From a virus (Duplodnaviria; Heunggongvirae; Uroviricota; Caudoviricetes): a DNA stretch of 13,714 nt. Both the position numbers and the translations under genes were made by a program. The notes beneath the pieces were generated by a model that worked only from the letters and a program-made list of their open reading frames with translations, ran no database searches and was not told where the DNA came from. This document shows positions 3,177-5,480 of this stretch, piece by piece (the first letter of the stretch is position 1; every line of letters begins with the position of its first letter). The DNA lies in IMG/VR virus record IMGVR_UViG_2693429599_000004, one strand, 5' to 3'.

Positions 3177-3677
3177 TCAGCTGATACTGATACCTGCTGT
3201 GGATTTTTTCATCACCACAACCAGCAGATCGCTGATACTTGCTGTGGGATACCAGTTATTTACCAGCCATGCTGACACCGAAAACTCCAGCGTCATGTGA
3301 CCGTGACCGGCAGGCATATCAATAACGCCACTGTAAATCAGCGTATTATCCAGCGCGGTACGGTTATAAATTTCAGCACCGTTTTTCCGCACTATCAGAC
3401 GGCATGAGGAGTAAATATCAGTATGCTCTCTCTCATGTTTAGCGCCGCTGAATGCCACCGCCGGAATAACAATTTGCCGGTCAAACGGCTGATCGTCATA
3501 AACCCTGACGGTAATGGTCCCTGATGGCCACCGCTCCGGTGCACGGGAATCCCGGGGGAAAGCTTTGCCCACTGTTTTAACGAGATCGCCTTCAATCTGG
3601 TTCGCGGACAGTTTTCCCAGAACCCGACAGTTCTCGTTAATCGTGACGTTGTTGAGCGTCCCGGAATTCGCATTCAC
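3177..3677 (-). pseudogene. J: C-terminal fragment (about 166 codons) of host-specificity/central tail fibre protein J
   Basis: ORF lies immediately upstream of lom, as J does in lambda. No ATG start (track start is GTG); the frame opens right at the W-fragment stop. Identity as J rests on position and general resemblance, not on a computed alignment. Confidence 0.55.
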
Positions 3678-3847
3678 GTTACCGCTGATACCGACTCCGC
3701 ATCATTGATCGCCCGGTTAAGCTCATCCAGAGAAGCCGCCGTATATTCAATTCTGCGACCATCTTTCTGGACAGACACCACCCGTTTACCGGTTAATAAA
3801 TCAAGGCGCGCCTGACGCAGCGCCTGCAGTTCAGCGACTGTAACCAT
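3674..3847 (-). pseudogene. W: N-terminal fragment of head-tail joining protein W (gpW-like), 57 codons, fused to the J remnant
   Basis: Translation [53 protein letters not shown]... parallels lambda gpW ([21 protein letters not shown]). ATG at 3847 overlaps the terminase 3' end. The frame leaves W homology after about 53 residues and stops. Confidence 0.6.
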
Positions 3848-5480
3848 TCACTCCTCCGGACAGCTTCGCTGCCAGTTCTTTCAGGGTTGGCCGGGTCGTC
3901 TCTTCTTCCCGGGATTTTGCCAGTACAGCCAGATCAAGCTGCCAGCGTTGCACGGACACACGTAATGCCGCGTAGGCATACACCAGGCAGTCCAGCGCTT
4001 CGTTACGCCGCTTTTTGTTATCCCACAGCAGACGCATCTTTCCTTTTTCCCACTTCTCCACAAGCTCTTCCGCGACCAGTTGCTGCGCCTCTGTCTGCGA
4101 AAAAATCTCCGGATCATCAGGAAAACGGATGGCATACGACGTGGCTTCATCCGCAGACGTGGGATCGGCTTTCATACGGGCATAGAGAATTTCTTTTGCG
4201 GTGTCCGTCCCCACTTCACACAGATACACGCCCCGCTGATTGCGGGTTTTCGGCATGGTGATCACCGGCTTGCCATAGACAGATGCGCCTTTTACCGGCA
4301 GCACCCGGAAAACACCGTGTTTTTTTGACCTCTGATAGACAATTTCACCATCGATCCCCCCGGTGTCCCAGCAGACACGGGAAATGGTCATTTCGGTTCC
4401 GTCTGCATGGCAGTATTTTTTGTTGATCGCCGCATCCACACGTAACAGCGTCTCTTCCTCATCGGGACGGCCCATAATGATGATTTTATCCACCAGAAAA
4501 GCTTCCTCTCCCGGTGCCCATCCCCAGACATACATCTCAAAACGGTTTCGCTGCGAGTCAATGCCCGCCGTCAGATAAACCACCCGGGCTGGCACCGCCG
4601 CCGTGTAATGCACGACCTTATCCATCAGTACCTGGTGATCGAGTTTTTCGCCCACGGCCTCTTCCCAGGTCTCGCCCAGCGTGGTGTTCACAAAGGTTTT
4701 CAGGCCGTTGGGATCTTTCAGTGCATCCAGCCAGTCATAGACTATCTGTACCCAGGTGGTGAACGGACTGTACGCCGTCCAGATATGGAACGTGATGGAG
4801 CGCGGCGGCGGAATTTCATTATCCGCGGCGCTGAAAAACGTCAGACCGTCACGGGTCCACATCCCCGTGTTTTCACAGATCCACCGCCCGTTGCTCTGGT
4901 CAAGCTCAGACTGATGGATCACGCAGCCATGATGTTCACAGAGGTAGAAAACGCTTTCGGGGCTGTCCTTCTCCCATTTAAGGCCAAAAGGCGTGGATTC
5001 ATCGCCAAATTTCAGATACTGCTCCTCCCCACAGTGTGGGCAGGGCACATAAAAACGCATGAAATGCGCCGACTCGTTGGCCGCTTTTTCGATCTGGCAG
5101 GTGCCTTTGATTTTAGGCGTCGAGCCGCGAATGGATTTGGGCCATACAGAGCCCTCAATACGTTTATCCCCAAGCAGGGTTGGCGAACCCTCTTTTTCGA
5201 CATCCGGTTCGAACGAGGAAAGTTCGTCATAGCAGACCACGTCCACGGATTTTTCACGGTAGTTTTTAGCGGCAGCCCCGCCCAGGCACCAGAAGCCCAC
5301 GCCCGATGAAAAACGTTTCAGCGTGAGGGTATTATCACGATGTTTACGCCCAAACCACGGTGCAAGATCGAGTAAAACCGGCACATCCCTGATCGTGGGT
5401 TCCACATGAGATTTCATAAAATCTTCAGCAGCAGAACCCCTGACTCTGCCAGGCGGTGATGGTCCTGACATCAACGCCAA
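3831..5480 (-). CDS. A: Terminase large subunit (lambda gpA-like), 5'-truncated; likely non-functional
   Basis: Recalled gpA similarity from [12 protein letters not shown] (about lambda residue 100) to the C-terminus ([89 protein letters not shown]). The track start is TTG; the first 18 or so residues are out-of-frame junction sequence and about 95 N-terminal residues are missing. Confidence 0.85.

Follow-up and report, generated by a model that had tools for sequence, protein, structure and literature searches.

In phages lambda and 21 the late region has a cos core and the gene order Nu1-A-W-B...J-lom-stf. Most lambdoid prophages of enterohaemorrhagic Escherichia coli (EHEC) O157 Sakai carry deletions, insertion sequence (IS) insertions or frameshifts in their morphogenesis genes, and some of these defective prophages are packaged with the help of co-resident prophages, with Sp4, Sp6 and Sp7 reported as packaged (PMC2669165, Asadulghani et al. 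2009). The stretch analysed here, hereafter called the window, comprises the complete contig CYFI01000043.1 of assembly GCA_001283785.1 (13,714 nucleotides, IMG/VR record IMGVR_UViG_2693429599_000004). It has the lambda order in its late region (cosN, Nu1-A-W, J-lom-stf) and the same cos core, and its A and W are 95 % identical to those of phage 21 at the DNA level, but it lacks the approximately 15.9 kb present in phage 21 at 2780-18658 (approximately 15.6 kb in the lambda equivalent). The start of W is instead joined to the end of J at position 3689/3690, which, judged from sequence comparison, is very probably the scar of one illegitimate (non-homologous) deletion within a phage 21-type lambda-like prophage located between potC and potB. 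The prophage with this W::J scar is called Y below and a second defective prophage X; the sequences and contigs fetched for comparison with the window are labelled L003 to L024.

The Sakai prophages Sp3, Sp4, Sp6, Sp9, Sp14 and Sp15, and prophages of the enteropathogenic E. coli (EPEC) strain E2348/69, resemble the scar prophage in being lambda-like, in carrying effector or moron cargo and in having lost morphogenesis genes. The prophage beside potB in E2348/69 has a deletion joining the protease gene C to K (C::K, L003 15242-15690), and in a prophage of O157:H7 PV15-279 the major capsid gene E is truncated against the tail gene V (E::V, L017 9616-10604). Since these breakpoints differ from W::J, the deletions are independent events. 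At the W::J scar essentially the entire head-tail block has gone in a single step, and this scar is absent from the genomes of Sakai, E2348/69 and PV15-279. The E2348/69 and PV15-279 prophages, each with internal deletions of its own, were unfit as references for the length of the lost DNA, and phage 21, lambda and an undeleted sister prophage between potC and potB were used instead. Features of the window and the sizes of the loss are collected in Table 1.

The W::J junction and the undeleted sister prophage

The window was aligned three ways with an intact W (phage 21) and an intact J (Stx2a_WGPS2 and later the sister prophage). DNA assignable only to W ends at 3691 and DNA assignable only to J begins at 3688, so that the two bases TA between them are common to both parents, and codon 53 of W is joined to codon 988 of J. 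The initial annotation had recognized the fusion between the beginning of W and the end of J, for which the sister prophage now provides the anchor, but had placed the breakpoint at 3677, 13 bp downstream of the actual DNA junction, where an open reading frame (ORF) of J opens. A megablast search against phages splits the region in the same way, with a 2-bp overlap, the terminase genes and W being of phage 21 type and J and lom of the type found in Stx-phage-type prophages, and the BLAST arms break at the same junction positions in phages, in E. coli genomes and in the sister prophage. A chance pattern is excluded, since each arm matches known genes at 99-100 % identity for kilobases. The genes around the junction all lie on the minus strand, as do, according to the ORF survey, the other genes of the window.

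A check for microhomology or IS scars had been proposed for this position. Every base around 3660-3720 could be assigned to the W or the J parent, leaving no filler, and alignment with the parents revealed no IS end or remnant in this interval, as an IS-mediated adjacent deletion would require; the IS66 element of the sister prophage lies inside the deleted interval, at approximately 3.8 kb from the breakpoint in J. Between the W and J parents there is only chance identity around the join, without the flanking tract of similarity that homologous or relaxed-homology recombination would need. A seamless join with a few shared bases is what is found in illegitimate, microhomology-type deletions.

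Two truncated frames flank the junction. The W-like frame, W', has the position, length and gpW identity originally given for it and consists of 53 codons of gpW, the head-tail adaptor, followed by SAVT and a stop codon read out of frame from J DNA. Its residues 1-53 are identical to gp3 of phage 21 and to W of E2348/69 (locus L003), both of 68 amino acids, and it matches the Pfam family gpW (PF02831) with 59.8 bits (cutoff 22.5, E 2.2e-16) over profile positions 3-50 of 66. It is not a full-length gpW (approximately 68 amino acids), as the C-terminal 15 residues are gone and profile positions 51-66 are unmatched. That W' might be a complete gene of another family could be ruled out, leaving a truncated gpW remnant.

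The J remnant, J', likewise proved to be J-derived, as had been proposed for the ORF between 3177 and 3677. Its first possible start is GTG at 3677, giving 166 codons which run towards lom in another frame than W', and this GTG overlaps the stop codon of W' as GTGA. J' contains the complete Ig_GpJ_C receptor-binding domain (profile positions 1-135 of 135, E 3.2e-39) and is 100 % identical to residues 988-1157 of the 1157-residue gpJ of the sister prophage, and 47 % identical at the protein level to residues 962-1131 of lambda J. The N-terminal and central tail-tip domains of gpJ (approximately 980 residues) are missing, as J-derived DNA begins at codon 988 of 1157. The J' stop codon lies 67 bp before lom. 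The two stumps are best seen as inert by-products of the join.

An intact version in sister strains, which the initial annotation had suggested looking for, was found by searching with the right arm of contig L005 together with its chromosomal flank. Among complete genomes this query was matched by D1, 24AR0142 and Z1323HEC0010 at 100 % and by Z1322HEC0005 at 99.6 %, and E. coli Z1323HEC0010 (NZ_CP148391.1) and 24AR0142 (NZ_CP195362.1) contain an undeleted prophage of approximately 51 kb between potC and potB. Its left part is ordered int-xis-...-Q-SASA-holin-lysozyme-Rz-perC-Nu1-A-W, its morphogenesis genes W-B-C-D-E-FI-FII-Z-U-V-G-T-H-M-L-K-I-[IS66-family ISCro1]-sodC-J and its right part J-lom-stf-tfa-nleB-espK. 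It thus shares with the scar prophage the integration site and the late-region order Nu1-A-W...J-lom-stf-tfa-nleB-espK, but unlike the scar prophage it keeps the DNA between codon 53 of W and codon 988 of J. The sister has defects of its own: Q is split by IS3, the IS66 element lies before sodC and J, and in Z1323HEC0010 nleB carries an IS1.

Homology of the scar contigs to the sister (L018) runs up to position 599 and starts again from 19999, TA being common. The arms of the window match the sister at 594 of 599 positions (99.2 %) to the left of the scar and at 3591 of 3594 (99.9 %) to the right of it, and those of L005, one of the scar contigs in which cos, Nu1 and A are intact, at 598 of 599 and 3860 of 3860 bp, respectively. 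Over 5.2 kb, the left arms of contigs of this kind are 99.7 % identical to that of the sister. When L005 5674-15246 was compared with L019, there was one mismatch in 6.1 kb of prophage and 40 in potB-potA-pepT, indicating sister prophages at the same site in different host backgrounds.

The 19,400 bp missing relative to the sister, rather than the approximately 17 kb first estimated by reference to lambda, contain the 3' end of W, the genes B through I, the IS66-family element, sodC and codons 1-987 of J. The genes originally listed as lost (B, C, Nu3, D, E, FI, FII, Z, U, V, G, T, H, M, L, K, I and most of J) stand in the sister between the two breakpoints, and the morphogenesis genes B through I are absent from the window. 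A single deletion would have joined the two codons at the shared TA, probably by end-joining or slippage without meaningful homology, and would have removed, together with the IS66-family element and sodC, the portal, the protease and scaffold, the decoration and major capsid proteins, FI, FII, Z, U, V, G, T, H, M, L, K and I. The remnant would make neither heads nor tails and would persist carrying lom, stf and effector genes. Its decay appears to have continued, with an IS1 in nleB, small deletions of cos-Nu1-A in sublineages and a separate deletion of the lysis cassette in L005.

The exact 57-residue W' is encoded on 20 public contigs, as found by an exact-protein look-up, and an identical 33-mer spanning the junction was present in all ten contigs fetched, which came from nine genome assemblies and one metagenome of different projects, years and pipelines. 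In seven of the ten a Y-type left flank runs for kilobases, and beyond lom, stf, nleB and espK the contigs L005 and L007 run on into potB, potA and pepT. Misassembly had been considered because the junction was absent from closed genomes, and the idea was set aside after the scar was found on 20 contigs. With only 2 bp common at the join, and no repeat to mislead an assembler, its presence in many assemblies argues that the W::J scar is a genuine feature, and it is restricted to one lineage.

Table 1 Features of the window and DNA missing at the W::J junction (window positions, unless another reference is named)
Feature	Position	Strand	Remarks
IS1, terminal 96 bp	1..96	-	GGTGATGCTGCC...; terminal inverted repeat from 96; also contig end
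nleB' (type III effector)	92..685	-	cut by IS1 after codon 196 of 326, at 96/97; SseK_NleB profile 1-187 of 317
Side tail fibre genes	862..2452	-	439-aa fibre (1133-2452) and 89-aa Phage_fiber_C protein (862-1131)
lom (Ail/Lom outer-membrane protein)	2511..3110	-	intact, 199 aa; Ail_Lom profile 1-199 of 199, E 7.8e-118
J' remnant	3177..3689	-	last 170 gpJ codons (3689-3180) and stop (3179-3177)
W' ORF	3674..3847	-	ATG 3847, stop TGA 3676-3674, 57 codons and stop
W::J deletion junction	3689..3690	-	2-bp TA microhomology common to W and J parents
A' (terminase large subunit remnant)	3831..5434	-	without ~109 N-terminal codons; called ORF 528 aa, ATG 5417
X-to-Y SNP switch interval	3972..4062		offsets -374 and -284; recombination crossover or assembly path switch
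Nu1::A junction, second deletion	5435..5436	-	TT microhomology, seamless; 765 bp missing vs E2348/69 prophage
Nu1' stump	5437..5513	-	ATG 5513, ~26 Nu1 codons, then FCC and stop
cosN core, intact	5684..5695	-	GGGCGGCGACCT; first 12 bases of lambda and phage 21
Missing vs sister prophage (L018)			19,400 bp exactly
Missing vs phage 21	2780-18658 (phage 21)		~15.9 kb
Missing vs lambda	~2792-18387 (lambda)		~15.6 kb

The left arm of the window

The loss described by the initial annotation concerned capsids and tails, and the window adds to this that the packaging genes of the contig are dead as well. At a second seamless deletion, Nu1 codon ~27 is joined to A codon ~109. In the remaining A' the GpA_ATPase domain is matched only at profile positions 73-247 of 247, the N-terminal 72 positions being gone, and the GpA_nuclease domain is complete. 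The Nu1::A scar kills both terminase subunits and leaves cosN intact. It occurs in at least four other assemblies, and in prophage X of other assemblies, and in no complete (closed) E. coli genome searched.

The exact 528-residue A' is also encoded on L021, L023 and L024, where it is followed by the full W of 68 amino acids and then by portal and protease remnants and tail-fibre genes. L021 represents prophage X and comes from GCA_001283665.1, the same assembly as the scar-bearing L007, and in that assembly X and Y keep their own arms. Prophage X is itself heavily deleted (L021 7571-10991): its full W is followed by a portal stump of 73 amino acids, an S49 protease, an ORF of 143 amino acids and then tail-fibre and fibre-assembly genes. 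L021 and L023 run on into two DUF892 genes.

The window differs from L021 by four mismatches in 7.7 kb, three of which are Y-type single nucleotide polymorphisms (SNPs) at offsets -284, -194 and -139. At every SNP diagnostic for X and Y the window is of X type at 4062 and above, and of Y type at 3972, 3882, 3827 and lower positions. The nleB IS1 site of the right arm is shared with L008, the left arm of which is of Y type. The pattern of the SNP switch, together with the separate arms of X and Y in GCA_001283665.1, suggests that the part of the window above approximately 4062 belongs to X, and it is reasonably probable that a short-read assembler joined X to the right arm of Y in the near-identical A/W repeat of approximately 600 bp. 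In that case A', the Nu1::A scar, cos, the lysis cassette, the SASA esterase and the tRNAs of the window may belong to X. In an earlier reading the left arm had been taken as the product of recombination after the deletion and Nu1::A as decay of the same prophage, and this was revised once the A' allele was found before a full-length W elsewhere.

The X-left/Y-right arrangement might also be real, homologous recombination in the 3' end of A between co-resident defective prophages having replaced the left arm of Y; we regard this as possible but doubtful. Lambdoid prophages are mosaic and recombining, the A' allele with its Nu1::A scar occurs downstream of more than one kind of lysis module (L024 compared with L021), and the contig of the window is unbroken for 13.7 kb across the switch. 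The switch interval is not constant, however, lying between offsets -374 and -284 in the window and one SNP interval further right (-284/-194) in L010, and the first base of both L010 and L013 directly follows an X/Y SNP, a pattern which graph branching predicts. The two prophages kept with their own arms in GCA_001283665.1 also speak against recombination. From the flanking gene order and the K-12 map, X and Y are presumably in direct orientation. In that case an X-left/Y-right prophage would either mark the joint in a large tandem duplication or need a double crossover duplicating more than 10 kb, and a short-read assembler should break on either arrangement. The W::J scar belongs to the potB prophage whichever of the two accounts of the left arm holds.

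Further features of the left arm were recorded. Between holin and lysozyme (8328-9458) the window encodes a DUF1327 protein of 268 amino acids, in place of which L004 and L020 have a YdfR-family gene of approximately 115 amino acids. The DUF1327 gene and an ORF of 104 amino acids on the opposite strand (phrog_1853, function unknown, no Pfam match) form an insertion of approximately 900 bp relative to the closest closed genome. The small RNA STnc100 (Rfam, 132 bits) was located at 12303-12492 on the minus strand, and two prophage tRNAs, Arg(tct) and one with a CAT anticodon (tRNA-Ile in relatives), at 13189-13265 and 13366-13441 on the minus strand, upstream of the SASA esterase. Both ends of the window sit in IS elements, the last 84 bp (13631-13714) being an internal piece of an IS66-like (ISEc22) transposase gene which abuts the DNA-methyltransferase region of the prophage. 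Elsewhere in the window, Rfam and PHROG scans returned nothing bearing on the scar.

Cargo genes and continued decay

The initial annotation had held that lom, stf, the lysis genes and the cargo were kept. This stands for lom, which is intact, and for the fibre genes, which are present, but nleB is cut by IS1, and the claim for the lysis genes is unsafe, since the window above approximately 4062 matches X, and L005, the one scar contig with a left arm of its own extending to these genes, has lost the holin and the 5' part of the lysozyme gene. The same IS1 insertion in nleB is present in L008, L010 and L013, and nleB is uninterrupted (326 amino acids) in L005 and L007. In Z1323HEC0010 an independent IS1 lies elsewhere in the gene, at approximately codon 285.

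Among the scar contigs, cos, Nu1 and A are intact in L005, L009, L011, L012 and L014. L007 (1587-1588) and L008 (522-523) share a deletion of 844 bp, corresponding to L005 2926-3769, by which cosN, Nu1 and the 5' end of A have been lost. Its left breakpoint, GGTT/ACG^GGGCGGCGACCT (slash, breakpoint; caret, nick), lies 3-4 bp from the nick site of cosN, and this position hints at a break started by terminase cutting. L005, with its terminase intact, lacks 1,036 bp (L005 433-437, corresponding to L020 5392-6426), a segment with the holin, ydfR and the 5' portion of the lysozyme gene, so that the potB prophage of that isolate has no working lysis cassette.

The 844-bp event and the Nu1::A scar of prophage X are separate small deletions with a common 1-kb target in cos-Nu1-A. 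It is conceivable, if rather unlikely, that cos and terminase became a liability after the loss of head and tail genes, through cutting of cos in situ on induction or by the terminase of a helper, and that the cos-Nu1-A deletions arose by selection or by terminase-initiated breakage, or alternatively that the remnant with intact cos, Nu1 and A acts as a satellite in helper heads. As a phage satellite proper, of the phage-inducible chromosomal island (PICI) or P4-like type, the element does not qualify, since a single deletion in a full-length prophage gave rise to it. No helper-hijacking genes were present among the Pfam and PHROG hits.

Other origins of the join and its meaning for lambdoid prophages

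Several points weigh against a single deletion of 19.4 kb, or limit what can be concluded from it. The junction was found in none of 5,426 complete E. coli genomes and in none of 185,579 GTDB species-representative genomes, and all support for the scar comes from short-read drafts and one metagenome. Microhomology of at least 2 bp is expected by chance in 16 % of random joins (P = 0.16), and being statistically uninformative it leaves the scar as a sign of illegitimate recombination and of no specific pathway. As the undeleted relatives are sister prophages in different host backgrounds, the ancestor may have had no IS66 element, and the true loss would then be smaller than 19.4 kb. The status of the left arm as an assembly artefact can probably be proved only with the reads.

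Recombination between two prophages with a chromosomal rearrangement, in place of a deletion within one prophage, could be imagined because strains hold several lambdoid prophages with near-identical W and J (median 2, up to 12 matching places per genome). It is very improbable, given that both arms of L005 match one sister in cis at 99.8-100 % at the same potC/potB site, that the contigs with intact cos, Nu1 and A match 5.2 kb of the left arm of that sister at 99.7 %, and that the join offers no homology on which recombination could act.

An assembly chimera of W and J from different prophages would agree with the absence of the junction from the 5,426 complete genomes, and the same contig has signs of a repeat-induced path switch approximately 300 bp away. 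With no repeat longer than the shared 2 bp to mislead an assembler, and an identical junction in the ten contigs checked, of varied projects, years and pipelines and including a metagenome, such an error is scarcely credible. It is just as hard to believe that W' or J' is kept for a function, such as that of a free receptor-binding domain of J whose translation is coupled to W', even though the Ig_GpJ_C domain is entire, the GTG of J' overlaps the W' stop and both ORFs are annotated by gene callers: the relation of the two frames follows directly from a random join, W' is without its C-terminal 15 residues, J' has neither signal peptide nor partner proteins, the copies show zero sequence variation for a test of selection, and no Shine-Dalgarno sequence is suitably placed (the end of the nearest GGAG is 17 nt upstream of the J' GTG), so that only the accidental GTGA overlap could give translation of J'.

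A single deletion within the potB prophage remains the preferred explanation. Judged by analogy with the EHEC and EPEC prophages, the scar is ordinary, routine decay of a lambdoid prophage in pathogenic E. coli, of a kind already known. It means that a prophage carrying effector and other cargo genes (lom, stf and nleB, with espK in related contigs) cannot build virions alone, and for this reason it could move only with the help of other prophages or by chromosomal recombination. The remnant, provided that it resembles the sister in other respects, would be approximately 32 kb long, below the packaging limit of lambda-type heads, and any mobility would be inefficient and helper-dependent. The window looks like one coherent defective prophage and is probably stitched from two, X and Y, so that short-read contigs from strains with multiple lambdoid prophages are an unsafe basis for stating which lysis or terminase genes a prophage retains. 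The scar itself provides a clean clonal marker for one E. coli lineage with the type III effector genes nleB and espK.

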